Below, piece after piece: positions 3,377-62,974 of a stretch of 64,000 nt of DNA; the first letter of the stretch is position 1, and the number at the start of each line of letters is the position of its first letter. A program made the position numbers and the translations under genes. The stretch comes from Lytechinus pictus (lineage: Eukaryota). Under the pieces are notes generated by a model. That model searched no databases. It was not told the DNA's origin and saw nothing but the letters and a program-made list of their open reading frames with translations. The stretch spans positions 3,784,001 through 3,848,000 of the forward strand of contig NC_087251.1 in NCBI RefSeq assembly GCF_037042905.1, in the 5' to 3' direction.

Positions 3377-3696
3377 GAAATAACATACATGTATGTCATG
3401 AATAGTATTAATTTTGTCACTATATTCATAAATATCATATTCTTATTGTTCATAAAATATGAATTATTCCTATTCTTATCACATAAAGATTTTTCCTTTA
3501 TTCATATAGTACAATGAGAGTCCGTTTCTTTTCTGTTTGTTATTTCAACATAATCAAAGTTAAAGACGATATTCCTGTTATGTGATTCTTTATTTAGTAA
3601 GTTGGGTATAACTTCATAAGCTGGATACATATTTTCATAACAATGTCGTATTGTACATCACTGGCTTTATAATAAAAAAAATGAAGCAAAAACAAT

Positions 3697-4666: not shown

Positions 4667-5461
4667 AAATGATACATACATATATTTTTTTTTCTTGTAT
4701 TGGTATAATGTGAGTGTGTGTGGGTATGTGTGTGTGTACTGAGCATCTGAAAACAGTATCTAAGGCCAAGTTCACCCCCAACGAGTTGGTATGATTTACT
4801 TTGATTGTCTTAATAAATAAGTTACAAATAAAAAAAATCAAGCAAACATAAGACTGAAATTCCATCAAAAATGTATGCAAGATAATTCACTGAACGTTAA
4901 TATGCAAAACACCAGATGTATGCAAATGAGGGAACCAATTATATCAGACATTCATTATTTCTATTCAATCTTATTGCATGAAAAATGAAATTTCATGTCA
5001 TATTTTATGAACTATTTCATTGTTTAAAAACTCTTATTCATATTACAAAGTTTGTCTCCTCCTTATACATGGGCAATGTAATTCATTGTTATTGTAGTAA
5101 CGTAATCACGTTTTAATTATTTTTTTCCGATCTTATTCTACAAAATCTAAATAACCAATAATTCATATTGTAAAATACAAAAGAATTAGGGTATGATATT
5201 GACTCCTCAATGTAAATCACACGTTATGTGCATTAGTGAAATTTAGTGAAACTGTAAATTTCCGAACTTTCTTATTTTCCTTCTGGTTTTGATGAACGTT
5301 TCAGTTAATGTGATTATTTGATATTTCTCACTGTATTCAACTTAATTTTATTGTAATTGTGGACTATTCTTATATGATGAGAGATTTCACTGCCTAAATA
5401 AATAAATAAACCAAAATGAATAAATGAACAGGTTAAAAAAAGAATGGGAGTCCCCCCCCCC

Positions 5462-8981: not shown

Positions 8982-10066
8982 TGAAATATTTTGGCATTTT
9001 TTTGCAATCATGTTTTTAGATATGCAAGGAATTGACATTGATATGTCCACAGTGGCGTATCGTGGGCCACGGCATTGGGGGGGAGGGGCACCAGCAAAAT
9101 TTTTGAATCACCGAGTGAGTGCGCTAATGAGCGCGCGAAGCGCGCTCAGTTGCCAGTTATACTGACCTAATAGAGACATTTTAAGGACAATGTCATTAAA
9201 CGGGTATGTATCTCAAAGATCAAATAATGCGAGCGCGAAGCGCGAGCTGAATTTTCTTATATTCACACCTAAACAGGAACATTATAATCAAATTTGTGTA
9301 ATCATGATATGTACCTGTCTCGCTAAACAATGCGAGCGCGAAGCGCGAGCTGAAAATTTAGATAATTCAGACCTGAAGTGGGGCATTCTAAGGTTTCTTT
9401 GTAGGAATTAACTAGGACCATACGTATTTCATTAACCAAATGATGCGAGCGCGAAGCGCGAGCTGAAAATTTTTGATATTCAGTTCAGAAGAAGGGACAT
9501 TTTAAGGACTGATTATAGGAATTATGAAATATTTGGCATTTTTTTGCAATCATGTTTTTAGATATGCAAGGAATTGACATTGATATGTCCACAGTGGCGT
9601 ATCGTGGGCCACGGCATTGGGGGGGAGGGGCACCAGCAAAATTTTTGAATCACCGAGTGAGTGCGCTAATGAGCGCGCGAAGCGCGCTCAGTTGCCAGTT
9701 ATACTGACCTAATAGAGACATTTTAAGGACAATGTCATTAAACGGGTATGTATCTCAAAGATCAAATAATGCGAGCGCGAAGCGCGAGCTGAATTTTTTT
9801 ATATTCACACCTAAACAGGAACATTATAATCAAATTTGTGTAATCATGATATGTACCTGTCTCGCTAAACAATGCGAGCGCGAAGCGCGAGCTGAAAATT
9901 TAGATAATTCAGACCTGAAGTGGGGCATTCTAAGGTTTCTTTGTAGGAATTAACTAGGACCATACGTATTTCATTAACCAAATGATGCGAGCGCGAAGCG
10001 CGAGCTGAAAATATTTGATATTCAGTTCAGAAGAAGGGACATTTTAAGGACTGATTATAGGAATTC
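8982..10066. repeat. Near-perfect 542-bp tandem duplication
   Basis: 8982-9524 is repeated at 9525-10066; the ORF track shows twin ORFs at 9190 and 9732. Confidence 0.9.
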
Positions 10067-10701
10067 ATGAAGAGCAGACATATCTCACCAATCCACTAAT
10101 GCGAACGTAATCACGGACAGGAAATGTTTCATATATATACGAAGACCTTAACATGGAGCAATCACTTTTTTGAGTCATGAAAAAGAAGCATATGTCACTA
10201 CATAAACAATGATAACTTAAGTGCTAGGAAATATATTTGGTTTATATTAACTTGAAAACGGGATGTTTTAGTACAACAGGATTATATATCTCGTTAAACA
10301 GACAGTGCGAGCACCAGGAACAATGAAGACGTAGGCCCTGGGCAAATTATGTTTCATAAAGTTATGATTTATATATAACAAACACAAGTATAGAATGAGG
10401 TATCAGAAAGAGCCCAAAAGTATTTTTGATTTCATTCTTCTGTTTTTGATCTCCAAAAACGAAATCACAACAGGTTTTTCTCGTTGTGATTTCGTTTTTG
10501 TGTTTTCAGAGACCAAACCATGAGGTTGATTTCCGTTTTTGCTCTGCGATGATCGGGAATGAAAAACGAATTATCCATTAGTACCCTGATTGTTTCTCTT
10601 CCTTTCTCCCTCTTTTCTCCTTTTCCTCGTTTTTTTTTTTTTTGGTCAGCCGATGGGGGGGGGGGGATGTGCCCCCCATGCCCCCCGTAGTTACGCCACT
10701 G
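9050..10701. mobile_element. Nested hAT-like non-autonomous element with GCGCGAAGCGC array
   Basis: TIRs CAGTGGCGTA / TACGCCACTG; 8-bp TSD TATGTCCA at 9042-9049 and 10702-10709. Confidence 0.85.
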
Positions 10702-18581: not shown

Positions 18582-21136
18582 CAGTGGCGTACCAGGCGGG
18601 GGGGCAAGTTGCCCTCCCCTGGCGGATTTCACCGGGAAAATAAAACAAGTGGAATGCCTCTGGCCGTCTCACCTGCATCACGCGATTCAATATAGCAGCA
18701 GTGCTGATTTTGAAAACTACTATAACTCGCACAAGATGTTCAGTGATACTTGGTTACTCTTATTTCCACGTTTTATGAACTAGACCAATACACTTATAGA
18801 GATATGATGGCAATTCAACAAATACCCCCAACGTACGTGGCCAAAGTTCTTTGACCTTACATGACCTTTGACCTTGATCATGTGACCTGAAACTCGCACA
18901 GGATGTTCAGTGAAACTTGATTACTATTATGTCCAAGTTTTATGAACTAGACCAACACACTTTCAAATTTATGGCTGTAATTCAACAAATACCCCAATTT
19001 GGCCAAAGTTCATTGACCCTAAATGACCTTTGACCTTGATCATGTGACCTGAAACTTGCACAGGATGTTCAGTAATACTTGATTACTATTATGTCCAAGT
19101 TTCATGAATCAGATCCATAACCTTTCAAAGTTATGATGGTAATTCAACAGATACCCCCAATTCGGCCAAAGTTCATTGACCCTAAATGACCTTTGACCTT
19201 GGTCATGTGATGTGAAACTCATGCAGGATGTTCAGTGATACTTGATTAACCTTATGTATAAGTTTCATGAACTAGGTCCATATATTTTCTAAGTTATGAT
19301 GACATTTCAAAAACTTAACCTTAGGTTACGATTTTGATGTTGATTCCCCCAACATGGTCTAAGTTCATTGACCCTAAATGACCTTTGACCTTGGTCATGT
19401 GACATGAAACTCAGGCAGGATGTTCAGTAATACTTGATTAACCTTATGGCCAAGTTTCATGAACTAGGTCCATATACTTTCTAAGTTATGCTGTCATTTC
19501 AAAAACTTAACCTCAGGTTAAGATTTGGTGTTGACGCCGCCGCCGCCGCCGCCGTCGGAAAAGCGGCGCCTATAGTCTCACTCTGCTATGCAGGTGAGAC
19601 AAAAAACGGGGAAAAAATAAAAGGGAGGGAGAAAGAAAGGGAAAGGAAAAGGGAAAAGGAAAGGAGGAAAAGGAAAGGGAAAAGGGAAAAGGATAGGGAA
19701 AAGGGAAAAGAAAACGAAGCAGATAATATATTTTTAATGGAAAAGGAAGGAAAGCGGGAAAATGAACGAAAGAACATTTGAGAAAAAACAAATCATTCCG
19801 AAATAGGCCTATGTAATGCAATAGCATGATGGGAAATAAATTAAAAGATGACAAAGAGGCAAACAATAACGGGAATTAAATGAAGGTAGAATGTAATATA
19901 GTCAAAAGCTAAATTGGAAAACAAAGAAAAGGGACAAGAAAAAAACTTAATAACATGACCAGGCTGCCGAGGATAGAAAATAAAGAGCGGGAAGAAAGAT
20001 GGACTGCATACAACATTGTGCTATTATAAGCTTGCTAAATTCAGTATGCAAATAAGCTACCGGGGCTTTGCCCCAGACCCCTCGCAGTAGGGGCTCTTCA
20101 TCTATAACCTCCAAATGGCTCTATAACGCCCCCCTATAGGGACCCTTCATACATTAAGCGTTACGTTCAATCAGTGGCGTACAGTCGGGGGGGGGGGGTC
20201 TTCGTTCCACACCCAAGAGGAAATAAAAGAAATTATATAGGAGACAACGTATAATGAAATGAATGGAAACAATGAAATGTGTTATTTGCTGAATATAATG
20301 GATATCTATCACATAATTAAAATTTTATTTCAATAGGCATTTTTCCAGCTCGCTTCGCTCTTTGGCGACTTTTTACGAATTTTCCCACATTGCTGTTTTG
20401 CCCCCTCAAAATATTTGGTTCAACTGGATTTAATAAATGTGTTGTGTAAAAGCTATATTCTGTATATACCCGCGATTTGATTAAAAATAGCGGCAATCTG
20501 CGAGGTTTAAATGGCTTTGATATCAAGAAGTTCCGGGGGGTCCAGACGGACCCCAACCGCAAAGCACTGCCGTATATTATTATGGAAGGGTTGGGCCATG
20601 GTCCCCAAAAGTTCTACAACCAAGAAAAAAAGGAGGAAAGAAAAGCAAAGGAAAAGTGGAAGATATGATTTTATTTACTGAATACAATGTCAAAAAATAT
20701 CTCAAAGTTAAATTCTCATGAAAATGTGATTTTCATTCTCGCTCGCTTTGCTCGCTCGGGACTTATATTAAGCAGCTTTTTAGCACTTGCGCCATACTGC
20801 GCCTCTCGTTTTTTACTCTTCACGCTACTGTTGCAAAGAATCATGTTCAGAGTGGCATACAGACCACTAAAAAGGAATGGAAAGAGAGAAGAGTGAAATA
20901 TATTATTCTCTGGATATCATATGTCAAAATCTATCACAAAATTTGATTTTTGTATTAAATATGTCAAAAATTTTGCTCGCTCGCAACTTTTTTTAAAGAT
21001 AAATTCTGCCTGATACGCAATGTCTGGCCCTCTCAAAATCGTCGCCTCATTACACCATTACGCCTGTTCATACCATGATATGACCGGGAATTTTGGGCTC
21101 TTGCCCCCCTGGCCACCGACCCCTGTTACGCCGCTG
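18582..21136. mobile_element. hAT-like element nested in the CCCGGG element
   Basis: CAGTGGCGTA ... TACGCCGCTG; TSD GGGCCAAA / GGGTCAAA (1 mismatch). Confidence 0.75.
18644..19602 (-). mobile_element. DINE-1/HINE-like element, copy 3
   Basis: Nearly identical to 3697-4666; inserted in an A-run. Confidence 0.8.
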
Positions 21137-27663: not shown

Positions 27664-29108
27664 TCATCTTTTCTGATGCAGGCCTCTTGTGATATGAGAC
27701 ATAAATTCATAGCGATCAGCGCAGTGGAATGCACATATATTGCACCTAAAGGGCTCCTGCCAGTCATGACATCCCATATGAATGGCATACATAATACTAT
27801 CGGCAAAGATTGTATGACAATGCTCGCATCGCATCACTTCATCTTGAGTTGAACTGTCCATCATCTTATTGCTACGGCTGCGGGATATAGAGCTGTTTGA
27901 GGACAGCTGAGGGGAATGAGCATCTAAACTTTCACGAGAATCTCTGCTGATTGTTGGCGACACTACATTATGAGGCATCCGTGAAGATGAAGAGTTAGAC
28001 AGAGGTGACTGATTTCTAACTGGATATTGAGGGTAGCGAAGGACATTCCTGCCTTCGTTCAGAGAAACAGCTTTCATAATGTAAGGGCCATTGCTGGTAC
28101 TTGAAGCTGTACTTTGTACCTGTCCCCCTTGGAGTAATCTTGAAAGCATGGATGCAGATGTAAGAGCACCCTGGCTAGATGGATGGCAGGTAGTTTGATT
28201 CCCATGACTACTGGATGTTGAACTATTAGCTGATAGTTTGGATTCAGGTCTTTGACAAGGTCTCTGTGAACTATTACTACTTTCACTGGGAAAACGATTC
28301 CTTGATGAAGATGTCGGTGATGGATTACCTTTAGAAAGTGCTTGCTCTAAGATACTCATTCTTGCCAGTCTTGATTGACCATTAGAATGACTTGCATCGC
28401 CGGGTGAGGCACGATCACCTACAGAATCAGGAGACTCCAAGGATCTTTGTGGGTGTGTCTGAATATGATCTACATACTCCTCTATAGAATGGCACCAGCG
28501 ATGACACACATCACAAACATAAGGGTAATTTCCTGGGTCTGAACCCGAATCTGGGTGCCTACGCTTCAGATGTTGTACAAGCTCATGAGCAGATTTGAAT
28601 TTTATATGGCACAAATCACAAGGGAAATTATCCCACTGATGAGATCGCATATGAAGGGTCATTCTCCTCTGACTCTGAAACATGTTACTGCATAGGGGAC
28701 ATTTGAAAGTGAACTGCTTAGAGCTATCTCGTGTATGACGAGTTTTAATATGAGTTTTCAACTGATCCTTTCTTGTTGCATTGTATTCACAGAATGGACA
28801 CTGAAATGGGCGACTCCCACTATGAAGGTTCATGTGCCTTCTTAAACTAGTTTTCTTTGTAAATGATGCTTTGCACCAGCGACAATCAAATTTTTTCTTA
28901 ATACCTCCCATACCAATAGGCTGCATTGTTACAGCTCCTCCAGGACGTAGAGCATTGTAGAGCAATGATGAGCTGGGTCCGGCATCTGGATCCTGATCTG
29001 TCATTGAACCCAAAGTACTTAAATCTTCCGGTTCAGCATCAAATGCAGCTTGCATATCATCACTTTCTTCTCCCATAAAGCTACCACCTTGTTCTATGAT
29101 TGCAGTTT
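27664..29108 (-). CDS. Ikaros/Hunchback-family C2H2 zinc-finger transcription factor, main coding exon
   Basis: Five N-terminal C2H2 fingers plus a C-terminal pair CEHCHTIFADSIMYAIHMGCH...CNICAFHCADRYEFMSHITRGLH matching the Ikaros dimerisation domain; TTTTACAG acceptor at 29109, phase 1. Confidence 0.93.
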
Positions 29109-29655
29109 CTGTAAAATAACATGTTAATCTAAAATTCAAATCACTAGATGACATGAGCTAAATACTTTTAGTACCAGAGAAAGCAATTTTCATTTAGAAG
29201 ATGACATCTTCAACCTGTGACCGTGTGATCTAAAAACCTAATCAAATCATTTTCGCTATAGTATGCATAAAATGCAACAGGTTTGAAGCTGGATTACCAA
29301 ATGAATTTAAGGTAACAAAAAATATTGCTTTTTCAAGTCAATGACTTTTATGACACGAAAATCTAATCAAATGATCATAATTCAAACATACTTGTAAAAA
29401 TAAATATGAAGTTTTATCAGTCAAATTTGTATATCAAAAGTACAAAACCATGGTGAAGGATATGAAATTTAGTAAAGCCATTCATTCTAACATAATTTAT
29501 CCCAAACTCCATCACCCATCACCCGATTTCCAGCCAAAGCGAATAGTAATAATTACCATGATTCATACCACAGTAGGCCTATTACCATTATATTTGCTTT
29601 TATTCAATTACAAATCTGGAAAGCATTTCATAAAACTTTAGTCATAGGTATTTAA

Positions 29656-30266
29656 AGGTCAAGTCCACCCCAGAAAATTTTTGATTTGAATAAATGGAGA
29701 AAAATCAAATTAGCATAATGCTGAAAATTTCATCAAAATCGGGTGTAAAATAAGAAATTAAATTTTTTAAGTTTCGCTTATTTTTCACAAAACAGTTATA
29801 AGCACAACTCAGTGACATGCAAATGAGACAGTCAATGATGTCCCTCACTCACTATTTCTGTTCTTTTTTTAATGTTTGAATGATACAATACTTCATTTTT
29901 TTTTTACAGATTTCGCAATAAGGACCAACTTGACTGAACCATATACATGTAGTATTAAACAATACTAATTCTACAAGTTTAGGGAGGAATTAATTGTTGT
30001 TTCACTTGACAATAAGGAGAAAATTAGAATATTTCATATTTCATAACATTAAATACAAAAGAAATAGTGAGCGAGTGATGTCATCAATCTCCTCATTTGC
30101 ATACCGATCAGAATGTGAATATAACTGTTTTGTGACATCAAGCGAAACTTGAAAGTTTAATAAATTTCTAATTTTACATCCGATTTTAATGAAATTTTCT
30201 GTTTTATGATTGTTGGATTTTTCTCTTTTTATTCAAATCAAGTTTTTGTTGGGGTGGACTTGTCCT
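29656..30266. mobile_element. Kolobok-like non-autonomous element in the Ikaros-like intron
   Basis: TTAA-AGGTCAAGTCCACCCC ... GGGGTGGACTTGTCCT-TTAA. Confidence 0.85.
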
Positions 30267-30395
30267 TTAATGAATCAGTTATAAGGTACCAAAATCATCA
30301 GCCCTTCTATTGGCTTTTATAGAGAAATCTACCATTACAGATCCCTGAAAAAACAGCTACAAGAAATGTTCCCTCAGTGTTGAAACAACTCTTAC

Positions 30396-30606
30396 CATCA
30401 TCAGGTCCATCTTTTTCTTCAGTAACCATGATATATCCTTCATTTGGTATGTGTTTGTTATCATTCTCTTCTTTGGTATCTGCTGTTGCTTGGATATGTA
30501 CAATATCTCTGTCTTCTTCTGGTTCCACATCATCTTCAATGAATTCTGACTTTACTTGAAACACGTCCATCAAACCTTTCAGATCTGAATCATTATATTC
30601 TGCCAT
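30396..30606 (-). CDS. Ikaros-like gene, first coding exon (acidic N-terminus); spliced protein 551 aa
   Basis: MAEYNDSD...DGPDD plus G, then a GTAAGA donor whose phase 1 matches the next exon; acceptor at 30631 with in-frame stops before the ATG. Confidence 0.85.
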
Positions 30607-33361: not shown

Positions 33362-33783
33362 CAGTAGAGGCGCAAGGCCAATATGGGAGACTCTCTTCAA
33401 TATGGGAGACAATCTCCCATATTGGAGACTTGCTTTCCAAAAGAACAAAAGAAACACCACCAACAAATCATAATTTTTTCCAACCAAAATTTTGTCTCAC
33501 TGAGGTTAGAAGCCAATTTCTTTTGTGTGTGGATGAGTCATCAGATGACAACAAAAATCCCTATCAAAACAAAAGATGGTGAATTTTTAAAGTAGATGGT
33601 AAAAAGGGGTAATTTTTCATGAGGAGTCTGCTTATTACATTTTTATTTGCCGCCAAGGTAATCCTTTTGCAGCAAATGTAAACAAAGGAAATTGGTCTCC
33701 CAAAAACAAGTTTCTGATAACGGAGATAATTTCTCTCATGGGAGACAGCTACAGACTCCCATATTGGCCGTGCGCCTCTACTG
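33362..33783. mobile_element. MITE with 5-bp TSD (hAT5-like)
   Basis: TIR CAGTAGAGGCGCA.GGCCAATATGGGAG; GCAAA on both sides. Confidence 0.85.
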
Positions 33784-33825: not shown

Positions 33826-34835
33826 CGTGAGGAGGCCGGAGGAGGGCTCTGTCACTAAAGCACTTAGTGATCTTGGTTGGGAATCTCTCCGAACAAGAAG
33901 TAGAAACCTTAGACTTTGCACGCTATACAAAATGAACACCACTCTCGTCAATATCAAGATAAACGAGTTTGTCCGACGGAACACAAGACATACAAGGGGG
34001 AATAACAAAAAATTCCTCCAGGTTCATCACAAGGCCAGGGACTAGCCTGGAGGCGTCTGGGGAGTAAAAGTCATATACTCTACGTATGGTTACTCCCCGA
34101 ACGCCTGGCGTTGCTATCGTAAGGCTCCCACACACTGAGGGAAAAGGCAACTATAAAAATGCGCCAAACTGCTAATTATGTTTAGAATCTGAGGTTAACA
34201 CTTCTGTACATGGGACGCGTATAGAGGGCGGCAAAATCATGAACGGTGCTAGATTAAAAAGTGCAAAAAATGTCCCGCTTCAACTTCAACTCGCCTCAAC
34301 TGCTTCAACTCGCAAGTTGAAGCGGGACATTTTAGCACTTTTTAATCTAGCACCGCTCATGATTTTGCCGCCCTCTATACGCGTCACGTAACTAGGTTGC
34401 ATTAACAAAGGATCAAAGATGGCGATGTCAACAAGTGTAAGTAAACTCTCTTCTACTTTTATTACTTCATGTCATTTATTTCGTCATTTTGTAACAATAA
34501 CTATCCATTTTTTGCCAAACGTTGCCAACCAATATTTTTACCCATGTACAGAAGTGTTAACCTCAGATTCTAAACATAACTAGCAGTTTGGCGCATTTTT
34601 ATAGTTGCCTTTTCCCTCAGTGTGTGGGAGCCTTACGGTAGCAACGCCAGGCGTTCGGGGAGTAACCATACGTAGAGTATATGACTTTTACTCCCCAGAC
34701 GCCTCCAGGCTACCAGGGACAGGGTCTTTCAAGATTCCTTTGTAAGCACGATAAAGAACTGGAATAACTTCCCCTCCTCGATTGTAAATTGCCCTTCCCT
34801 GGAGTCATTTAAATTAAAACTGAAAGTAACTTCAA
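33826..34835 (+). mobile_element. 3' fragment of a CR1/L2-group LINE ORF2, split by a MITE
   Basis: SVTKALSDLGWESLRTRS..RLCTLYKM...HHKARD joins in frame across the MITE to RVFQDSFVSTIKNWNNFPSSIVNCPSLESFK. Confidence 0.75.
34043..34712. mobile_element. hAT-like MITE with ~170-bp TIRs and an inner 172-bp palindrome
   Basis: TAGCCTGGAGGCGTCTGGGGAG... arms; 8-bp TSD CCAGGGAC at 34035-34042 and 34713-34720. Confidence 0.9.
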
Positions 34836-35050: not shown

Positions 35051-36009
35051 TCGCTACTCGAGTCTAGCGTAGCCAGGCGGCTTCTAGAGAGTAAAAATCA
35101 TTTACTAACGTAAGGTCACTCTCATGAAGCCAGGGCTTCCGTCATATACTTTTGTGTGTACCACCAAAAAACCTGAAACTTTCGCCCCCGAGATTTCTAC
35201 TTTCTTTCTAAAAGATCTAGCCCTAAATCATGTACATGGGTTAAAAATTCATTTCCGACATTTCCGATGTGTCTCTCAATCTCATTTCTCAACTGACATT
35301 TTGCTGACCCAACTATTCAGATTCAGAAAGGTTCTCTTCTTCCCGATTAAATGATTTGGTATAGATCTAGATCACTTAAACATGCTTTTAAGATTATTTT
35401 GAGTGAGATATATCATATGTGCTTGCAGCCTTGGCTTTGCCTTTAGTTAACTTTAAGGAAGATGGAAAAGAGAATTTTTTGGGGGAAAAAACGACACACA
35501 TTAAACAATATGTGGGACTAAGCCTGGTGAAAGCGCACTAAAAAAGACAATTAGAGTTGATACGAATAAGAATAGATTACTACATAGTTATCGTTGATCG
35601 AAACCATATCAAATTGAGATGTCATACCTGAGAAATTTTTTGGGTAATCCTGGGTTTTAGGGGCGTAAAATATCTGTATACATTACCGGCCTCTAACTTC
35701 AGCAAATCATCCCAGCATAGTATGGACGGCTAAAAGGGCAAATATTCAAATATGATTGAGCTGTTTTCATCATTGTTGTCTCGCATGTTATAGCTGGATC
35801 TTTTCTTGAAACTTTGGCATTAGGGCAATCAAGTTTAACTGACCGAGTTGAAGGTCACATGATCAAGGTCAAAGGTCATTTAGGGTGAAATTTTTAACAA
35901 AATAATTGTATTTTTCCCAAGAAATTTGAATGTAAGGGTAATTGAGCTTTACTTTTAATATCAACTTATTGCTGGTCACCTGAACAAGGTCAAAGGTCAT
36001 CTTAATTCG

Positions 36010-37516
36010 AGGGGATTTGGCTTGAAAGGGGGAAGGGGGTTCTTCCAAGTACCCTACATTTTAGTGGAAGGGGATCAAATTGGCCTTTATATATATTGCA
36101 CCTACTGGGTTTGAGGGGTATAACTATAAATTATGTTTTGGCTTAAGGAGGGGGGGGGGTACTTCAAAGAACTCTACATTTCAGTGGAGAGGGATCAAAT
36201 TGGCCTATATAATATTCCCTTATTGTACCTACTGGGTTTTAGGGGCATAAACTATTTTAGGGACTTGAAGGGGGGGGTACTTCCAAGAACCCTACATTTA
36301 ATTGGAGAGGGGATGAAATTGGCCTATATATATTACCGTATTGTACCTACTGGGTTTTAGGGGCATAAACTATCTTTTGGCTTGAGGGGGGGGGGTACTT
36401 CCAAGAATCCTACATTTAATTGGAGAGGGGATGAAATTGGCCTATATATATTACCGTATTGTACCTACTGGGTTTTAGGGGCATAAACTATTATTTGGCT
36501 TGAGGGGGGGGGGTACTTCCAAGAACCCTACATTTAATTGGAGAGGGGATGAAATTGGCCTTTATGTATTACCGTATTGTACCTACTGGGTTTTAGGGGC
36601 ATAAACTATTTTTTGGCTTGAGGGGGGGGGGGGTACTTCCAAGAACCCTACATTTAATTGGAGAGGGGATGAAATTGGCCTATATATATTACCGTATTGT
36701 ACCTACTGGGTTTTAGGGGCATAAACTATTTTTTGGCTTGAGGGGGGGGGGTACTTCCAAGAATCCTACATTTAATTGGAGAGGGAATGAAATTGGCGTA
36801 TATATATTACCGTATTGTACCTACTGGGTTTTAGGGGCATAAACTATCTTTTGGCTTGAGGGGGGGGGGTACTTCCAAGAATCCTACATTTCAGTGGAGA
36901 GGGATCAAATTGGCCTATATAATATTCCCTTATTGTACCTACTGGGTTTTAAGGGCATAAACTATTTTAGGGACTTGAAGGGGGGGGGTACTTCCAAGAA
37001 CCCTACATTTAATTGGAGAGGGGATGAAATTGGCCTATATATATTACCGTATTGTACCTACTGGGTTTTAGGGGCATAAACTATCTTTTGGCTTGAGGGG
37101 GGGGGGGTACTTCCAAGAATCCTACATTTAATTGGAGAGGGGATGAAATTGGCCTATATATATTACCGTATTGTACCTACTGGGTTTAAGGGGCATAAAC
37201 TATTTTAGGGACTTGAAGGGGGGGGGGGGTACTTCCAAGAACCCTACTTTTAATTGGAGAGGGGATGAAATTGGCCTATATATATTACTGTATTGTACCT
37301 ACTGGGTTTTAGGGGCATAAACTATTTTTTGGCTTGAGGGGGGGGGGGTACTTCCAAGAACCCTACATTTAATTGGAGAGGGGATGAAATTGGCCTATAT
37401 ATATTACCGTATTGTACCTACTGGGTTTTAGGGGCATAAAATATTTTTTGGCTTGGGGGGGGGGGGTACTTCCAAAAACCCTACATTTAATTGGAGAGGA
37501 GATGAAATTGGCCTAT
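36010..37516 (+). repeat. ~120-bp tandem array, left foldback arm (about 12-13 units)
   Basis: Unit G(n)TACTTCCAAGAACCCTACATTTAATTGGAGAGGGGATGAAATTGGCC...CTGGGTTTTAGGGGCATAAAC. Confidence 0.95.
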
Positions 37517-37687
37517 TAAACAGCCTGAAAACATAAATAATACAGCTCTTCTAATGTTTTCTATGTTGATGAATTCATTTATGATAGTAATTTTCCATTT
37601 TAACCAATGCCAATGCCTTAATTAGAATTACTGGCTCAATGCACTAATTAACATCTATGTGCAATATATCAAGTATATATTCCTATG

Positions 37688-37960
37688 ACCGGTGTGTTGT
37701 CTCAGTTGGTAGAGCGTCCGTCTCACAACCGGGAGGTCGGGGGTTCAAACCCCGCCTGCGTCAGACCAAAAGACGTTAAAGATGGGAGTTGCTGCTACCC
37801 TGTTTGACGTTCAATGATTAAAGGGATAGAACCTCGTCCATCCGGTGCTGCACAGCGGCCGCCGGGCCCGCGATCAATTGGGCATAGCAAATTTTCGGAC
37901 TATTTCATTTCATGTCTCTTTCGAACAATAAATTATGGATTTTCATTTTTTTTTTCATTT
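37688..37960 (+). mobile_element. tRNA-derived SINE (Meta-SINE-like core)
   Basis: tRNA-like head with A and B boxes and an unpaired acceptor stem, then GTCAGACCAAAAGACGTTAAAGATGGGAGTTGCTGC and a TTTTCA-type tail. Confidence 0.8.
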
Positions 37961-38078
37961 TTTCTATGTTAGTTTATATCGAGTGTGCCTGAAAAACATG
38001 AAAAATATATCACTATCCTATGGCTAGTGGTAATTAAAATACAGGTGCAATACATATATTTCGTTGTCTCTGTATTTA

Positions 38079-38956
38079 TTGTGTCGCCTGCTTAGCAGAG
38101 CAAGACTATAGGCGCTGCTTTTCCGACGGCGGCGGCGACGGCAGCGTCGTCAACATTGATATATATATAAAATAAGCAATGCCAATGTCATCATAACTTA
38201 GAAAGTATATGAACCTAGTTCATGAAACTGGGACTTAAAAGTAATCAAGTATTACTGAACATCTTGCCTTAGTTTCAGGTCCCATGACTAAGATCAATGG
38301 TCATTTAGGGCCAATGAACTAAGATCTTGTTGGGGGAATACATATCAAAATCTTAACCAAGGATAAGTTTTAAAAATGTCGTCATAACCTAGAAAGTATA
38401 TGGACCTAGTTCACGAAACTTAAACATAAAGGTAATCAAGTCATACTGAATACCCTGTCTTAGTTTCAGGTCACATGACCTAGGTCAAAGGCCACTTAGC
38501 GTCAATGAACTTTGACCATGCTGGGGGTATTTGTGGAATTGTCATAACTTTAAAAGTTTATGGATCCACATGTAGTTAATGAAATTTGGACATAAGTGCA
38601 ACCATGTAGGCCGATCCCTGTATATCCTGTGCGCATGTCAGGTCAATTAAATGACCAAGATCAAAGGTAATGTAAGGTCAATGAACTTTGGCCATGTTAG
38701 GGGTATTTTTTAACTTGGCATCATATCTTAGAAAGTTTATGGATCTAGTTCATGAAACATAAACATATGGGTAATCAAGGATTGTTTTGCACACATGTTA
38801 GGTCACTTGATCATGGTCAAAGGCCATTTTGGATCGATGGACATCATATGAATTGTTCTTACGTGAATATTTTATGCAATAACTGTTTTCAAAGTCAAAA
38901 CTGCTGCTATATCAAATCACGTAATGCAGGCGAGACTGCCAGAGGCGATCCACTTT
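38079..38956 (+). mobile_element. DINE-1/HINE-like element, diverged copy 4
   Basis: Reverse complement of 11615-12731, including the (GGC)n tract and subterminal inverted repeats. Confidence 0.75.
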
Positions 38957-40029
38957 GATTAGCTCATTATGCCAATCATTAAGCTAATTTTACAACATTA
39001 ACATTGTTTTAATGAAATACGATATCATAAATGAATTCCTCGTCATAGAAAACTATGAAATAGCTGTATTATTTATGTTTTAGGGCATTTTTTAAATATA
39101 AAATGGCAAAGGAATATATATTTATATGTAATTATATTGCAGATATACTGTATGTTAATTAGCGCATTATGCTAGTAATACTAATTACGACAATTACATT
39201 GGTAAAAAGGGGGAAAATAATGTCAGAAATTAATTCCTCGTCATAGAAAACCATGGGATAGCTGTATTATTCATGTATTCGGACATTTTCGATATAAAAT
39301 GACAAAGGAATGTATATATTGCACATATATGGTAATTATGCTAATTACGACAATTACATTGGTAAGAAGGGAAAATAATGTCATAAATGAATTCCTCGCC
39401 ATAGAAAACTAGCTTAGGGTACATGTAGCTGTATTAATCATGTTTTCGGACATTCTCGATATGAAATGACAAAGAAATATATATTTTTATATGTATTACA
39501 CATATACATATATATATGTTAATTAGTGCATTATGCTAATTATGTTAATTACAGCAATTTCATTGGTTAAAATTGAAAAATATGGTCATAAATGAATTCC
39601 TCGCTATAGAAAAACCCTCAAAGGGATGCATTGTCTACGTATTGGGCATTTTTTGGATAGACATCCACAAATATACATATTGCACTTCAATGCTAATTAG
39701 CTCATTATGCTAATTGGGATTATTACGATAATTGCATAACTTAAATATTTAAATTATTGCTTTAAATTGATTCCTCGTCACGGGACCTCTTAGTAAAATT
39801 ACTTTTTTTTTAAATCTTTCTGGTTTAAGAGAAGTAGCATATATTACATATCGTAATATGCTAATTAGATGATTATGCTAATTAGGCTAATAAAAATTGC
39901 TCAAGGTTACCAAGGTGGCAACCAAGCTGAATTTACTTCAATACCCATCTAGAACACAAATCAACAAAAAAACCTTGTACTTAACAACTTTTCCAGTTTA
40001 AAAAAATTTCTACTGGACTATCTCTCGTC

Positions 40030-40880
40030 TTTTCACATGAAAAAAAAACAGATGCTCGTATAAGTTTCTTCAGTATTCCCACAAAACGAACATTCACTAT
40101 CTGAGAAAATTTTGAATAAATGTAAATATTTCTTCGTGTATATTAATTAAAGCATTTTAAATTGAAACTCTCTAAGCCTACTGCTTAGAGTACATTTTCT
40201 GGGTCTTGAAAATATAGCACAGATATCTTTCGGAGAAATTATATGTCTTCTCTATATTATTAAACGCATACGATTTTTCCAATTTAATACTTAAAAAGTG
40301 CCTTGTATATTTTCTTGGATGTAACGTTTGGTTAACTGTTAATCTTACAATTAAATATAAATTGTAGATTTAGACCAGTGTCTTCACAGTTGTCGTTTTT
40401 CTTCAAAAGGTGTTTCCATGTTGCTGGAATATTTTTTAAAAATGTGTAAACTTTATCTATTTCATTTCCATCTAACCCCATTTTCAGAAAGTATCTAGGA
40501 GATTTGATGATACCTTCCTTGTCAACAATATGATGCAATTTATAATGTATATATTTTTAAGAAATGATTTTTCATCAAATAGCATTTGCCCATTTAGTCC
40601 AATAAGTTTGTTGTTAAAAAATATCTCATTTCTTTTAGATGTTTCTTTTTTAAGAAGTACTTCTTTGGTAACGGCCCAAATTTCCAACATATCCATATAA
40701 AATTTTGGCAATGATAGTTTACAGATATTCAGTGAAGTATTAGTGAATAATAACAAAAGTCCTCCTACATCACGGGTTCCATATATAAAAAAAAAACGTT
40801 TCCATCCTATTCTGAATCTCCTGTCAAAAGCCTTTTCAGCCACACGACTCTTTGTGCATATACAAATAAATGAAAATCTT
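40030..40880 (-). pseudogene. L1/Tx1-type LINE ORF2 C-terminal fragment (decayed)
   Basis: AQRVVWLKRLL...LPKFYMDMLEIW...NNKLI...RLREFQFKML...CSFCGNTEET zinc knuckle; stops and frameshifts. Confidence 0.8.
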
Positions 40881-41984
40881 GATTACTAAATCAATTACAT
40901 AAAAAGATGAGGTTTTGATCGCACGCTTGTCTTTGAGAAGAATACCGGTACTTGATTCCACGATTTTTCTAAAAGATGTTGATGATTGTTTCTGATTCAT
41001 GCAAAAGGAGAGAATTAGCTGCAAACGCATTACCGACACTCCAAACTTCGACAAGACTGGTGTTCCTTTATTGTCATTTGAAATTCTTGTTCATTCGTGA
41101 CTGACTGTGTGATTGGTTCCTCCTCTTCATAGTCACTCGCTTCAAAGGTCTCCTCGTCTGTTGTGTAAGGCCACGTCTTGATCCACTGCTATACAGATCA
41201 GCCCCCCACCCCCAAAGAAATCCATGTCCGATGAAAAAAATAAATGGAAAAAGGAAACGAAAAGGATGAAACATTACTGAACCTTCTGGGGAAAACAAAC
41301 AGTCATTATTATCAATGGCTCTTAATAGAGTGATCCGTTTCATTTGGAACAGAAGTGTAGGCTTTATGATTTCACTCACAATTAATGCAGGAACATGAAA
41401 TTAATGTGTGCCATTGGTTGTGGTTTTTTATATCATACCTAGTTAGAACAAATAAAACATACAATGTTATCTCCAATTACTAATACAGCTCCCCCACCAT
41501 TGGGCCTACATTATAAATGGGGAATAAAAATGAATAAAACTGAATGTCATTTATATTTTCTGATATGTTTTATTTATTGTAATTATTGCATTATAAATTT
41601 TGTTGGAAAAATGAATAAATAAATAAATGAATGAATGAAATGAAAAAGACGGATTAAGTGTATCACTTCATTGAGTTAGATTCCATAAAAAAAAATGTTA
41701 CTAATGGTCATCCATCCATGACACTTTCAATTCTTGTCATAAGCAATTAATGTAAACATTTCAATATCATTTTATATTTATGCCAAATAGTATTAATGGC
41801 AAATTCTATCATTCTATATTGGCAAATAAACTGTACATACCTGTACCTTTCTCCAATTAGGATATGGAGAGTTTTTTATCAGGGAAATGTCAACGCATAG
41901 GCATTTGGAAGTGGATGGCCCAGGCTTCCTGATGCTTCATCGATGACATCACCCCTTCAAAAATTATCACTCCATACCCCTGCA

Positions 41985-43090
41985 TGGAGTCAGTTGTTAC
42001 TCTATTATAAAAATTATCTTTTGATAATTGACGACCAATATCTTTACTCAGTATCGACTACAAAATTGCAGCTCGGGTTTTAGCGATGCGTTTAAAGAAA
42101 ATTTTATCATCATTAAACTGATCAATGTGGATCGGCATGCGAAAATGTTATGCTTGCTAAAGATATTATTGACTCTTAATTGTAAATTTAAAAGTTCCTG
42201 TGGCATTATCAATTTTTTTTAGATTTTCTAAAAGCATTCGACAATGTGAACCACTCATTTCTGTTCAAAACATTAAAGTTTAAGGAATCGTTTATAAGTT
42301 GGACTAAGATGTTACATAAACATGCTCAAGGTAGAGTACTACAATGCATGTGGTTGGTTATCAGAATAAAGGTGTAAGACAAGGGTGTCCATTGTCAGCA
42401 TAGTGGTTTATTTTGTTTTCAGAGATTTTAGCAATTCGTATTAAAGAAAATGATAAAATCAGAGGTATAGATGTTTCAGGGTATTGTTTATGCTTACCAC
42501 ACAGAAAGATCAAAATAACACTGTTCGCAGACGATACGACGATATTCATTAATTCGATTAAATCCCTTCATAATATTATGAAAGAGATAAATAATTCCGG
42601 TTCCAAAAATTCCAAAGTAAATTGGAATAAGACAAACATGTTAAAAATAGGGATATTTAACTTAGAAAGATAAGAAGCGAGTTTGATTTTACCGATGATC
42701 CTGTCAAGTATTTAGGAATGTTTGTGTGTGGGGGGGGGGGGGGGGGGATGAAGAGTATATACGAAAGCTCATTTGTGAAGGGAAAATTGAAAAGGTCAAT
42801 AACATACTAAAAGCATGGAAAATGAGTCAGCTTACATGTAACGGTATAATTATAAATATGAAATGTTTAATTGTGCCTCAAATCGTTTATGTTGGTACGT
42901 TTATTCCAATGCCAGACTATGTATGCAAGGGTTTACATAAGATATGGAATTCAAAGCGTGAGAAAGTTAAACGTAATGTTTGTGTCAGACCGATAGATGA
43001 AGGTGGTCTTGGTATGATCGATCTATATTTGAAATCAAAATCACTTATATTGTCTTGGATAAATTCCTTTTTAAAGAGGGATTTTGGGTA
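41985..43090 (+). pseudogene. L1/Tx1-type reverse transcriptase fragment (decayed)
   Basis: N*RPISLLSIDYKI, DFLKAFDNV, GVRQGCPLS, LFADD, KYLG and EGGLGMID motifs, with stops. Confidence 0.88.
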
Positions 43091-43531
43091 GAAATTGGCA
43101 CTTAAATGGCACTTTAAAAATAGGCACTTACACGAGAAAGGGGTTTTCAGGCTCCTCCTAAGGTGAAAGGAGCATAGTACACGTTCATGATGGGACATTT
43201 TTATTGCGTAAAAAGATGGTGGACACTGTGCCCCCCCCCCCCCGCATGACAGTAAAAAATCCGGCTCGCGATTTGCACTCGCATTAATTGTTAAAACTAT
43301 ATTAACGCATGCATTTGATAAATACAAAAGTACAAAAATCAAAAGGCCTTAATATCAACAAACTTCTTGCTCATATTAGGCTTATTAGATTAATGAATAC
43401 ATAATAACATTTTGATGAAATCCGAATAATCGAATGTGCCCCTTTTTAAGAATTGGAAATCGACAAGTTTCATCTCGCACTGAGAAAGAGGAATAGGAAA
43501 ACAGTCATCATTTTTACATGGTTACGCATAG

Positions 43532-44350
43532 CATAGGCGGATCCAGTGGGGGGGGGGCTGAGGGGCCCGCCCCCCCCCCCTATTGGCAGAGCAAAAAAAA
43601 AGAAAAAAAAAGGGGAAAGAAAGAAAAAAAAGAAAAAGAGAGGACCAAAAAAAGGAGAAACATAAGAGGAGGAGGACGAGTGAATAAAAAAAGATGAGGG
43701 GAAGAGCTGGAAAATAATTTTAAAAGTATTTCATGTCACCATACAGTATAAAATTTTCGCTCGCGCTTCGCGCTCTCATTGACTTTTAGGTGATTTCTAT
43801 ATATCTTGCTTAATACAGAGCTTAAGTATACAATTTTGAAGTCAATATACAAAACATATTGCAACTCGGAAATTTAACTTTCATTATTTTGTTTGATTTA
43901 CAATTTTTTTTTAAATGTGCTCTGTAAAAATTTCTTGTTTTATGGTCTGAATATTAATATTTTCAGCTTGCGACGCGCTCGCAAAATTTGATTATTCAGG
44001 TACCTATTATTTTCCTGTACTCCAAAAAGTTATCAAAACTTAAGATCCCTATTCACGTCAGATTGTCAAAACGTATCGGCTTGCGCTGCTCGTTCGCGTT
44101 TTCCATCGTTGAAATATGGATCGTCTTATTGGCTATCTGCAAACAGGTCCCTTTCGATCAGGCCAGAACGTACATTAAAATATTTTGCGCTCACACTGTT
44201 TGAATGGGGCGTATGAGATTATAAGGTTACAAGAATAAAGCAAATAAAAGAAGTGTCAATTACAACTACCCCTTTACCGATCGAGGAAAATATGGTTGAA
44301 CAAATTTGTGCCCCCCCCCCACATACTGGCAAAAGTTGAATCTGCCCCTG
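43532..44350. mobile_element. Shortened, diverged copy of the CATAGGCGGATCC family
   Basis: Aligns with 14085-14620; degenerate right end TTGAATCTGCCCCTG; no TSD seen. Confidence 0.65.
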
Positions 44351-44446
44351 TACCAATGCGTCATCATGTGATTGAAAGCCAATAAAATAGTTTCTACCCC
44401 TAAAACCCAGTAGGTGCAATATATATAGCCCAATTTGATCCCCTCT

Positions 44447-45009
44447 CCCGGGGGGGGGGGCACTTCCATTCACGAGTGGATACCATGCGCGACCATGGGG
44501 TCTCGAAAAGCACCCTAAACACGTAATTTCCATATTCTGAAAATGCACCCCTTAACAAGTATTGGCGTGTGAAACCCTACCCGCCTTAACAAGTGTTGGT
44601 AACAAAACGATACTCTTGGCAAATGTTTCCTGAAATGAACCCCTAAACAAGTACAGGAATTTTTTATTGTTACGGGTCCTTCGGTCGTCGGCTTTACCTT
44701 ATTTTGGTTTAGTACGACCCCACCTTCTACACCTCGCGTAAATCGGACTCTAAACACGAAGTGTTGGGGCAAAATGGACATCCTTTATAAAACATTTAAA
44801 TTTTGTTTTATCATTCCCGCAAATTCGACCCTAAACACGTAATTTTCCTAGCGAAATAGACACCCTTTTTTTCATTATTTTGTGTTTTTGACACCCTTAT
44901 CACGTTACGTACGTAACGTGCCCTATGGTGAAAAGGACATCCTTTTTACGTGTTTTTTTGGTCGCGCATGGTATCCACTCGTCAATGTAAGTGGCCCCCC
45001 CCCCCCCGG
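44447..45009. mobile_element. CCCGGG-ended MITE inserted in a foldback array unit
   Basis: TIR CCCGG(G)nCACTTCCATTCACGAGTGGATACCATGCGCGACC; TCCCCTCT(C) duplicated on both sides. Confidence 0.85.
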
Positions 45010-47225
45010 TCCCCTCTCCACTCAAATGTAAGGTTCTTGGAAGTACCCCTCCCCCCTCAAGCCAACAAATAGTTTATTCCCCTAAACCCCAGTAGGTACA
45101 ATACGGTAATATATATAGGCCAATTTCATCCCCTTTCCAATTAAATGTAGGGTTCTTGGAAGTACCCCCCCCCCCCTCAAGCCAAAAAATAGTTAATGCC
45201 CCTAAAACCCAGTAGGTACAATACGGTAATATATATAGGCCATCCCCTCTCCAATTAAATGTAGCGTTCGTGGAAGTACCCCCCCCCCCTCAAGCCAAAA
45301 AATAGTTTATGCCCCTAAAACCAAGTAGGTACAATACGGTAATATATATAGGCCAATTTCATCCCCTCTCCAATTAAATGTAGGGTTCTTGGAAGTACCC
45401 CCCCCCTCAAGCCAAAAAATAGTTTATGCCCCTAAAACCCAGTAGGTACAATACGGTAATATATATAGGCCAATTTCATCCCCTCTCCAGTTAAATGTAG
45501 GGTTCTTGGAAGTACCCCCCCCTTCAAGTCCCTAAAATAGTTTATGCCACTAAAACCCAGTAGGTACAATATGGTAATATATATAGGCCAATTTCATCCC
45601 CTTTCCAATTAAATGTTGGGTTCTTGGAAGTACCCCCCTTCAAATCCCTAAAATAGTTTATGCCCCTAAAACCCAGTAGGTACATTACGGGAATATATAT
45701 AGGCCAATTTCATACCCTCTTCAATTAAATGTAGGGTTCCTGGAAGTACCCCCCCCCCTCCCCCCCCCCCCTCAAGCCAAAAAAAAGTTTATACACCTAA
45801 AACCCAGTAGGTACAATAAGGGAATATTATATAGGCCAATTTGATCCCTCTCCACTGAAATGTAGAGTTTTTTGAAGTACCCCCCCCCCCCCTCAAGCCA
45901 AAAAATAGTTTATGCCCCTAAACCCCAGAAGGTACAATACGGTAATATATATAGGCCAATTTCATCCCCTCTCCAATTAAATGTAGGGTTCTTGGAAGTA
46001 CCCCCCCCCCTTCAAGTCCCTAAAATAGTTTATTCCCCTAAAACCCAGTAGGTACAATACGGTAATATATATAGGCCAATTTCATCCCCTCTCCAATTAA
46101 ATGTAGGGTTCTTGGAAGTACCCCCCCCCTCAAGCCAAAAAATAGTTTATGCCCCTAAAACCCAGTAGGTACAATATGGTAATATATATCTAGGCCAATT
46201 TCATCCCCTCTCCAATTAAATGTAGGGTTCTTGGAAGTACCCCCCCCCCCCTCAAGCCAAAACATAGTTTATGCCCCTAAAACCCAGTAGGTACAATATG
46301 GTAATATATATAGGCCAATTTCATCCCCTTTCCAATTAAATGTAGGGTTCTTGGAAGTACCCCCCCCCCCCTCAAGCCAAATAATAGTTTATGCCCCTAA
46401 AACCCAGTAGGTACAATACGGTAATATATATAGGCCAATTTCATCCCCTCTCCAATTAAATGTAGGATTCTTGGAAGTACCCCCCCCCCCCTCAAGCCAA
46501 AAATAGTTTATGCCCCTAAAACCCAGTAGGTACAATACGGTAATATATATAGGCCAATTTCATCCCCTCTCCAATTAAATGTAGGGTTCTTGGAAGTACC
46601 CCCCCCCCCCCTCAAGCCAAAAAATAGTTTATGCCCCTAAAACCCAGTAGGTACAATACGGTAATACATAAAGGCCAATTTCATCCCCTCTCCAATTAAA
46701 TGTAGGGTTCTTGGAAGTACCCCCCCCCCCTCAAGCCAAATAATAGTTTATGCCCCTAAAACCCAGTAGGTACAATACGGTAATATATATAGGCCAATTT
46801 CATCCCCTCTCCAATTAAATGTAGGATTCTTGGAAGTACCCCCCCCCCCTCAAGCCAAAAGATAGTTTATGCCCCTAAAACCCAGTAGGTACAATACGGT
46901 AATATATATAGGCCAATTTCATCCCCTCTCCAATTAAATGTAGGGTTCTTGGAAGTACCCCCCCCCCCCTTCAAGTCCCTAAAATAGTTTATGCCCCTAA
47001 AACCCAGTAGGTACAATAAGGGAATATTATATAGGCCAATTTGATCCCTCTCCACTGAAATGTAGAGTTCTTTGAAGTACCCCCCCCCCTCCTTAAGCCA
47101 AAACATAATTTATACCCCTCAAACCCAGTAGGTGCAATATATATAAAGGCCAATTTGATCCCCTTCCACTAAAATGTAGGGTACTTGGAAGAACCCCCTT
47201 CCCCCTTTCAAGCCAAATCCCCTCG
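45010..47225 (-). repeat. ~120-bp tandem array, right foldback arm (about 18 units)
   Basis: Reverse complement of the 36010-37516 units. Confidence 0.95.
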
Positions 47226-47285
47226 AATTAAGATGACCTTTGACCTTGTTCAGGTGACCAGCAATAAGTTGATATTAAAAGTAAA

Positions 47286-47732
47286 CAGTAGAGGCGCACG
47301 GCCAATATTGGAGACTGTCTCCAATGTGGGAGATTATCTCCAATATCAGAGACTTTTGTAAAGAATTTGGGTATCCAATTTCAGAGACAGTCTCCAGTTT
47401 TGGAGTCCAATTTCCTTTGTTTACATTTGCTGCAAAAGGATTACCTTGGCGGCAAATAAAAATGTGATGAGCAGATTCCTCATGAAAAATTACCCCTTTT
47501 CACCGTCTACTTTAAATATTCACCTTCTACTTTTGTTTTGATAAGGATTTTAGTTGTCAATCACACACAAAACAAATGGGCTTCTGACCTCAGTGAGACA
47601 AAATTTTTGGTGGAAAAAATCATGCTTTTGTTGGTGTTGTTTCTTTTGTCCTTTTGCAAAGCAAGTCTCCAATGTGGGAGATTGTCTCCCCTATTGGAGA
47701 GAGTCTCCCATATTGGCCGTGCGCCTCTACTG
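47286..47732. mobile_element. MITE with 5-bp TSD (hAT5-like), second copy
   Basis: Same TIR as 33362; GTAAA duplicated; the left foldback arm shows the empty site. Confidence 0.9.
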
Positions 47733-48207
47733 GTAAAGCTCAATTACCCTTACATTCAAATTTCTTGGGAAAAATACAATTATTTTGTTAAAAATTTCAC
47801 CCTAAATGACCTTTGACCTTGATCATGTGACCTTCAACTCGGTCAGTTAAACTTGATTGCCCTAATGCCAAAGTTTCAAGAAAAGATCCAGCTATAACAT
47901 GCGAGACAACAATGATGAAAACAGCTCAATCATATTTGAATATTTGCCCTTTTAGCCGTCCATACTATGCTGGGATGATTTGCTGAAGTTAGAGGCCGGT
48001 AATGTATACAGATATTTTACGCCCCTAAAACCCAGGATTACCATTTTTTGAAGATAGTCTTTTGCTGGAATGAGTAATCAAGGATAAGCCAGAAAACGTA
48101 TTTTTATATCAACCTGTGTCCTGTAGCTGTCTCAAGCTCATCTCAGACTCCCACTTTTTCTCAGAGTCAGAGTCGAGTAACTAGTCAGCTTAGAGCCAAA
48201 CACCTAC

Positions 48208-55504: not shown

Positions 55505-55652
55505 ATGTTATTATTACCCTTCTCCAGTCTAAAGTTGCTGAGCGCCAAGCAAGAGGGCAGAAGGTCCCATTTTTATAAGTCCTTGATATGACTCGGCCGG
55601 GAACGAACCCACGGCCTCCCGTTCATGAGGCGGACGCTCTACCACTGAGCCA
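55505..55652 (-). mobile_element. tRNA-derived SINE (Meta-SINE-like core)
   Basis: Minus strand reads TGGCTCAGTGGTAGAGC...GGTTCGTTCCC...GAGTCATATCAAGGACTTATAAAAATGG. Confidence 0.75.
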
Positions 55653-61924: not shown

Positions 61925-62190
61925 CTACACATGGGGAAAAAGAGGAAAAGTCCAAAGAGAAATTAAGTCTGAACTGGACGCCATGGTGTAAAGACGTGTT
62001 TTGGTCAGCTCCGCGGTACCATGCATGCATTTTTTAACTACTACTATTACAGCCATACCATATACCATTTACTTCTTTGATTTGCGACATTTGCTCAGCG
62101 GAACGTTGTTATACTACCTCTTCATCAATACTTTGTGCAGAAATTCATTATTTTGCTACTTTTGGCTTGACTTTTACTCCCTTCACCACC

Positions 62191-62974
62191 ATGTCAACGC
62201 GTACTACACGTGCTAGTACTAGCGCCTCGGACAAGGTCGCTCAACCCGAGCCAACGCCCAACAGTATCGCCGAACTGAAGGCCGACATAAAAACGCTATC
62301 CGAGGTGTTATGTCAGAAGATAGATGAGTTACGCAACGACACTGCAACCATGCACCGCAAAATATCTGACCTAGAAACCGCTATGACGGCTACGAGTGAA
62401 CGGACTTGCCATCTAGAGACCGTCCAACTTCCAAAACTACGTGAGGACCACAAAGCCGACATGTCAGCCATAGAGAAGAAACTGATTCTCCTCGAGCTCT
62501 ACCAGAGAAAGGCTAATCTCCTTTTCTATGGGGTCCCCCATAACAGAGATGAAAACGTCTATGAGAAGCTCCGCAACGTCTTCGTTAATCTTGGTCTATC
62601 AGTGGAGGATGCAAATGCCATATCCATTGCAAATGCACATCGGTTACCCCGCAAGTCGCAAGCTGGAGCAGCCGCCCCTCCCCCTGGTCCTGAGCCTATC
62701 ATAGCGAAATTCGTTATTTTTAGTGATCGTCAGCGTATCCTAGAAGCCTACGAGCATCAGCAACGCGTACCTCATAGCGATGCAAATAATATTAGCAGAA
62801 TCTCGGTGAGAACCGATCTTCCACCAATCATGAAAGCTCGCAGAGCTAAGCTCGCTACGGTAGCATATGAGAAAGCAGAAAAATCTATCAACCAAGATAT
62901 TTGTCAAGGATACCAATGTTATTCTTCAATTCAAGACCAAGGGCACCAGTGAATGGAAGACCTACCATGACTAA
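62191..62974 (+). CDS. LINE ORF1p-like protein (coiled coil plus RRM-like region); probable frameshift near 62875
   Basis: CCACCATG start; heptad-rich N-terminus, LELYQRKANLLFYGVP, AHRL, PIIAKF, DLPP..KARRAKL; the +1 frame continues KNLSTKIFVK...EWKTYHD*. Confidence 0.75.

Follow-up and report, generated by a model that had tools for sequence, protein, structure and literature searches.

The described transposons that come nearest to the element treated here are two zebrafish families of the Merlin superfamily, which, in the part of the source available, is defined by terminal GG and a target duplication of 8-9 bp (PMC8101967). According to the same excerpts, Merlin-2_DR (Repbase) carries arrays of a 79-bp repeat near its two ends (12.5 and 9.7 units), the last of its listed repeats reaching base 13,661; Merlin-N5_DR, which is non-autonomous, has terminal inverted repeats (TIRs) of 1000 bp with 113-bp units (5.2 copies) in both arms (PMC8101967). 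Merlin-related proteins are listed for echinoderms as well, S. purpuratus included. For sea urchins, the TU elements that Liebermann et al. reportedly described in 1983 are foldbacks with long modular arms, variable middles and much shorter repeat units than those found here. In the 64,000-nucleotide stretch of Lytechinus pictus analysed here (contig NC_087251.1; hereafter the window), a 12.4-kb foldback transposon occupies 35643-48042, and its two ends are inverted copies of one terminal sequence (GGTAA...TTACC). On balance, we favour reading it as a non-autonomous cut-and-paste foldback, probably moved by Merlin, that carries an old and previously amplified middle.

That the whole 12.4 kb entered as a single insertion is strongly supported, because one exact 8-bp target duplication (ATTTTTTG) bounds both outer ends. 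This 8-mer has a frequency of 2.3e-4 within the window, and the probability that two random 8-mers match is 6.8e-5. An outward-facing terminus was sought at 37516 and 44371, i.e. at the inner limits of the two arms, and none was found. The GGTAA termini and the perfect 8-bp duplication had already been reported in an initial annotation of this DNA, and both hold, with the exact 8-mer on both sides and the ends inverted. The flanking duplications and the two arms, including two MITEs (miniature inverted-repeat transposable elements), have the following layout:

35635-35642, plus strand: target site duplication, left copy
35643-36015, plus strand: left arm, outer non-repetitive domain, starting with GGTAA, in which bases 7-27 are the array-unit motif
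36016-37516, plus strand: left arm array, 118 bp x 12.6 units, broken mid-unit at 37516
44371-44447, minus strand: right arm, innermost diverged array unit, apparently where the array naturally ends on its inner side
44448-45009, no strand: 562-bp MITE within the innermost right unit, with a 9-bp target duplication
45010-47217, minus strand: right arm array, 119 bp x 18.5 units
47218-48042, minus strand: right arm, outer domain with a MITE inserted in it, ending with TTACC
47286-47732, no strand: 447-bp MITE, in the right arm only, with the 5-bp duplication GTAAA
48043-48050, plus strand: target site duplication, right copy

The arms are identical at 310 of 310 bases from the tips inwards (35643-35952 against 47733-48042). 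Over the next 876 aligned bases they differ by two substitutions (36786 and 36798, both far inside), a 6-bp tandem extra present in the left arm only (36119-36124) and six homopolymer-length differences, with no substitution in the outer ~1.14 kb. The outer five to six units of the left array mirror the right arm in register, units 2-5 from the outside being identical between the arms after collapsing G-runs. In the deeper array the order of variant units differs between the arms, which means that the mirror spans ~1.1 kb and that growth of the inner arrays took place independently in each arm. Every array unit repeats a ~20-bp motif that lies seven bases from the transposon tip; allowing up to 3 mismatches, this motif is matched 12 times in the left arm and 19 times in the right arm, and not once in the middle or in 51.5 kb of flanks. 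The left array breaks mid-unit at 37516, where it abuts a truncated second foldback (see below), and the right array ends in a diverged unit. The essentially identical outer arms and the ~120-bp arrays on both sides, as first annotated, are therefore accurate descriptions. As a separate observation, a stretch of the outer arm (35795-35890 and 47795-47890) is 72-76% alike over ~100 bases to sub-repeats of the HINE-like family that is also present in the middle, and it contains AGGTCA direct repeats, which we take to resemble nuclear-receptor half sites.

The same annotation called the ends young. The arm identity stands, but it is weaker evidence of youth than was stated: cut-and-paste transposition does not reset that identity, as neither arm is made by copying the other, and for long arms an evening out by conversion is proposed (PMC3573991). 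Arm identity therefore provides no date for the insertion, which leaves the exact target duplication as the only, and weak, sign of its youth.

Between the arms lies a middle of 6,854 bases (37517-44370), of which at least 4,258 (62%) are repeat-derived, as judged from similarity to other parts of the window and from tblastn, Pfam and Rfam. It is composed of the following parts, among them a short interspersed nuclear element (SINE) and remains of open reading frame 2 (ORF2) of long interspersed nuclear elements (LINEs), with or without the reverse transcriptase (RT) region:

37517-40020, no strand: second, older foldback-like element without its left end; the right end at 40020 is presumed
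37688-37965, plus strand: tRNA-headed SINE in the left arm of the second foldback, right end approximate
38071-38955, minus strand: old HINE-like repeat at about the centre of the second foldback, with sub-repeats of ~160-190 bp
40021-40880, minus strand: decayed LINE ORF2, portion after the RT domain, limits approximate
40881-41986, no strand: spacer of 1.1 kb, no class given
41987-43082, plus strand: decayed LINE ORF2, RT region with stops and frameshifts
43083-44370, no strand: old dispersed repeats

The second foldback is marked by inverted units of ~167 bp (37527-37668 and 38031-38068) that face an array at 38955-39715 (74-79% alike). The SINE within it has an Rfam tRNA match (37691-37763, 31.9 bits) and a 73.5% match to 55539-55652, and the repeat at its centre, for which HINE is the label we presume, resembles three sister copies of the window at 73-78%. 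Further to the right, the RT region has three segments that are 43-82% alike to P0041/P0042 (E at most 1e-85; RVT_1), and the minus-strand LINE piece is weakly supported (35% to P0041/P0042 with E ~1e-3, where the best control reached 0.16; zf-RVT E 0.043). The two LINE pieces are nearly consecutive along ORF2, but with matches of 66-68% versus 35% to the same reference they probably belong to different families, and a single LINE split by inversion is unsupported. A protein homologue was searched for the spacer and none was found, while within the dispersed repeats 43254-43514, 43531-44185 and 44277-44351 have matches of 71-76% in other parts of the window.

A Pfam scan of 125 stop-to-stop frames (at least 33 residues in the middle and the left outer arm, at least 40 in the two MITEs; arrays excluded) detected no DNA-transposase family, in agreement with the earlier statement that no transposase is recognisable, and the sole strong match among these frames was to a reverse transcriptase (E 4.5e-6). 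The earlier description of the middle as holding only SINE, HINE and LINE pieces is right as regards the old debris; the word 'only' does not stand, because the middle also contains the truncated second foldback and its array of ~167-bp units. One exon-like frame (41077-41232, minus strand), acidic and on the same strand as a neighbouring Ikaros-like gene, was considered as a captured exon and rejected for want of a credible homologue: it has no Pfam match and no Atlas match, 0 of 5 candidates passed, and a search of 1.84 billion representatives brought up one sequence, a tandem-repeat protein in which no stretch passed and which tblastn did not match to the window. Nor is it part of the Ikaros-like protein, the coding exons of which map to 30606-30397 and 29109-27664. 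A splice-donor-like site at ~41839 is probably a chance occurrence within the LINE end (E 0.12, control no worse).

Public sequencing runs provide a second view of the middle. The run search listed 14 runs that share 0.09-0.48 of 715 sampled words (i.e. none reached half), and the contigs of four of them (X1, X3, X11 and X12) were compared with 37380-45120; the figures that follow are those of the 30 records listed out of more than 109,000. In organism C (X11 and X12, two samples of one study), pieces that are ~99% identical are found over 38926-43520 in the same order, bridging the junctions near 40020, 40850, 41985 and 43090, which means that the composite of the middle is real and not an assembly product. 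One 1,241-base contig of X12 has 140 extra bases at 41040, where pieces of X1, X3 and X11 break too; judging from these contigs, the window copy most likely lost these 140 bases. In organism A (X1 and X3, two samples), the middle is ~95% alike to the window. There, contigs spanning the LINE/spacer junction near 40850 have a depth of 307 (X1) and 623 (X3), and the lowest-depth pieces among those listed have 33-47 (X1) and 67 (X3), so that the junction depth is ~7-9-fold over the lowest pieces listed, if those (n=4) are single-copy. Internal-deletion forms also occur in organism A (42589>43116 in X1 and X3, 42288>42777 in X3), with a depth of 223-508, the pieces at 43907-44316 have a depth of 166-659 (X1/X3), and the array is abundant (bin depth 18,219 and 22,752). 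Taken at face value, these depths make the 40-43 kb composite look multi-copy in organism A, with deletion forms.

Following these results, a plausible history of the element would begin with a helper transposase, made elsewhere, that binds both ends, excises the 12.4-kb unit and integrates it at a target cut with a stagger of 8 bp. The arrays may have grown via duplication of the end motif, by which the transposase would be offered many binding sites, as in Galileo (P superfamily), the arm repeats of which were shown to hold extra transposase-binding sites (PMC3688188, in the part accessible). The right 4.35 kb of the middle (40021-44370) would be an old internal region, carried and amplified by the transposon family or by another mobile unit since before the split of the window's species and organism A. 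The older second foldback would have come inside, after which a deletion or template switch at 37516/37517 could have taken its left end together with the inner left array. The whole unit would then have jumped to its position ~5 kb upstream of the Ikaros-like start codon, and arm-to-arm conversion may have evened the outer ~1.1 kb, the 447-bp MITE having arrived later or having been skipped. The cargo is thus old and was probably amplified earlier, and a long-carried middle is proposed because the composite looks multi-copy with deletion forms in organism A, which is ~5% diverged. The left 2.5 kb of the middle is explained equally well by nesting plus deletion as by capture.

The alternative that survives best is a recent Pack-type capture, in which a short foldback acquired all 6.85 kb as a copy of a single donor locus without arms (through template switching or gap filling) and then jumped; we regard this as unlikely, though far from negligible. 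It would account for a middle that is an arbitrary-looking slice of repeat-rich DNA, starting inside a cut element at the left-array break, and the organism C form, ~99% identical with 140 more bases at 41040, is what a donor or sister would be like. Foldback-mediated capture followed by re-transposition is moreover described for Ssk-FB4 (PMC8277862, in the excerpts available). No donor locus was located, however, the multi-copy appearance of the 40-43 kb part with its deletion forms in organism A is unlike a plain single-copy donor, and neither a host exon nor any other host-gene piece was found in the 6.85-kb middle. The initial annotation had proposed that captured DNA moved as a unit. The single, gene-less unit filled with old debris is supported, and recent Pack-type capture is the less likely part, neither a donor nor a piece of a host gene having been found.

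As for the class of the transposon, it has the structure of a foldback, i.e. long inverted arms with unique outer and tandem-repeat domains, a target duplication and a middle without coding capacity, and its one copy combines 5'-GG at both ends with an 8-bp target duplication, which is the signature of Merlin. The DDE_Tnp_IS1595 transposase was detected in 0 of the 125 frames at E 0.05, and the transposon is therefore not filed as an autonomous Merlin. By analogy, it seems fairly likely that the helper acting in trans is a Merlin transposase (IS1595 family). Merlin or Mutator had been guessed from the start; Merlin is reasonable as the best guess (GG ends, 8-bp duplication, like-built families), with Mutator as its rival. 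The P superfamily, to which Galileo belongs, has CA-type ends, and neither the 8-bp duplication nor the GG ends found here agree with it.

Several points weigh against the history and the helper that we favour. The Merlin assignment is built on two terminal bases, on the length of the duplication and on analogy. No copy that has these ends and carries a transposase was encountered, nor was a second copy with these arms, and metagenome scans by end pattern and by array pattern gave 0 matches each. In the runs of organisms A and C, no piece among those listed connects the middle with an array on either side. For the 7-9-fold estimate, the four lowest pieces listed are taken to be single-copy, and depth is a poor measure of copy number. 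Furthermore, the depth of the bin 37380-37638 in organism C is 10.6 (X11) and 5.2 (X12), which is not above that of the middle, though 31 units predict far more. This low array cover might point to a source of the middle that has no arms and is not counted either way; the X11/X12 runs are possibly RNA, sequence is lost from contigs, and G-runs are read poorly. Finally, most foldbacks are held to be Mutator-like (PMC4079207, in the part available).

This last point is also an argument for a second alternative, that of the same structure and history with a Mutator-type helper (MULE/Phantom, where MULE stands for Mutator-like element) instead of Merlin. Tetris of Drosophila virilis is assigned to Mutator and makes duplications of 8-10 bp (PMC4079207, same excerpts), those of FB4 are 9-10 bp (PMC8277862, likewise in part), and those of Tm1 are 8-10 bp, mostly 9. 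The duplications of Mutator-type foldbacks are usually 9-10 bp long, against 8 bp in the single copy here, and no MULE transposase was detected in this copy. A Mutator-type helper is regarded as improbable because the duplication is exactly 8 bp and comes with GG ends, and because Merlin families with arrayed kilobase arms exist; the length usual in the family may differ from that of one copy. Two independent insertions or half elements around native DNA, or a mirror made by the assembly, are very improbable, since one exact 8-bp duplication bounds the outer ends (chance ~2e-4) with no outward-facing terminus at 37516/44371, and since a fold-over read would not produce what sets the arms apart, namely two MITEs, each with a duplication of its own, and independent inner units.

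The Ikaros-like zinc-finger gene next to the transposon occupies 27664-30606 on the minus strand, and its protein agrees at every one of 481 residues (100%) with 'DNA-binding protein Ikaros-like [Lytechinus pictus]'. Upstream of its start codon, at a distance of ~5 kb, sits the transposon. An acceptor-like site at ~30631, just ahead of the start codon, suggests that the gene has an unmapped 5' non-coding exon further upstream. Because of this hint, the transposon may lie within a 5' intron of the gene, or else in upstream DNA.

Neither of the two MITEs in the right arm was part of the initial annotation. The 447-bp MITE, which starts with CAGTAG, has a sister at 33362-33783 that is 88% alike and has the duplication GCAAA, and the pair GCAAA/GTAAA points to a possible target preference. 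The 562-bp MITE has ends with G/C-runs, and its summed depth of ~1 million in the organism A runs indicates that its family is very large in that organism.

Elsewhere in the window, a 670-bp element at 34043-34712, presumably hAT-like, has 172-bp arms (99%), TAG...CTA ends, an exact 8-bp duplication (CCAGGGAC) and an inner palindrome (34214-34385), and is inserted in an apparent LINE end. Two copies of the HINE-like repeat (3689-4669 and 18637-19605) are 97% alike, 15 kb apart and in the same orientation, and 8982-10071 is a direct tandem duplication of 546 bases that is 99% identical. An open frame of 304 residues at 62038-62952 (plus strand) has no significant Pfam match, and we take it to be a LINE ORF1 from its looks.

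The foldback insertion is real, has intact ends and follows an already described design. As it stands, the transposon is a tidy example of that design, and it would become weightier if the helper is Merlin and the middle is captured, family-wide cargo. The larger proposal of an echinoid 'Pack-Merlin' foldback family, a long-lived carrier of several kb of captured DNA that was amplified across the species split, is rather doubtful. If true, it would mean that binding-site arrays let more than 10 kb keep moving, that a copy lies in the 5' region of an Ikaros-like gene as a possibly expression-changing polymorphism, and that some of the classical sea urchin foldbacks could owe their transposase class to Merlin. 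No description of this transposon family was found in the literature searched, which lacks most subscription papers, and the words 'Merlin' and 'urchin' are absent from the main text of the animal Pack-TIR survey (PMC8277862).

The comparison with known systems can be drawn as far as the sources, each available in part, describe them. The Pack-TIRs and Ssk-FB4 likewise hold foreign DNA between long inverted arms bounded by a target duplication, but Pack-TIRs are called only with an identified parental copy of non-transposon sequence (PMC8277862), whereas here no parent was located and at least 62% of the middle is repeat-derived. Galileo also has long arms with internal tandem repeats, for which arm exchange and conversion were proposed; unlike the window element, it makes 7-bp duplications and uses a THAP transposase (PMC3573991), and binding of the transposase to the arm motif would in the window element be presumed. 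With Tetris and foldbacks generally, the element has in common the unique outer domain, the tandem-repeat domain, the non-coding middle and a duplication within 8-10 bp, and with Tetris in particular a repeat unit that shares a stretch with the outer domain; Tetris differs in its ~220-bp units, its assignment to Mutator and in having seeded free satellite arrays (PMC4079207). Compared with Merlin-2_DR and Merlin-N5_DR, to which it is likened by description only, the window copy has more units (12.6 and 18.5), a debris-filled middle and no trace of a transposase; it shares with them the GG ends, the 8-9-bp duplication, arrays of ~80-113-bp units in both arms and a size ranging up to ~13.7 kb, and with Merlin-N5_DR also the missing transposase (PMC8101967).

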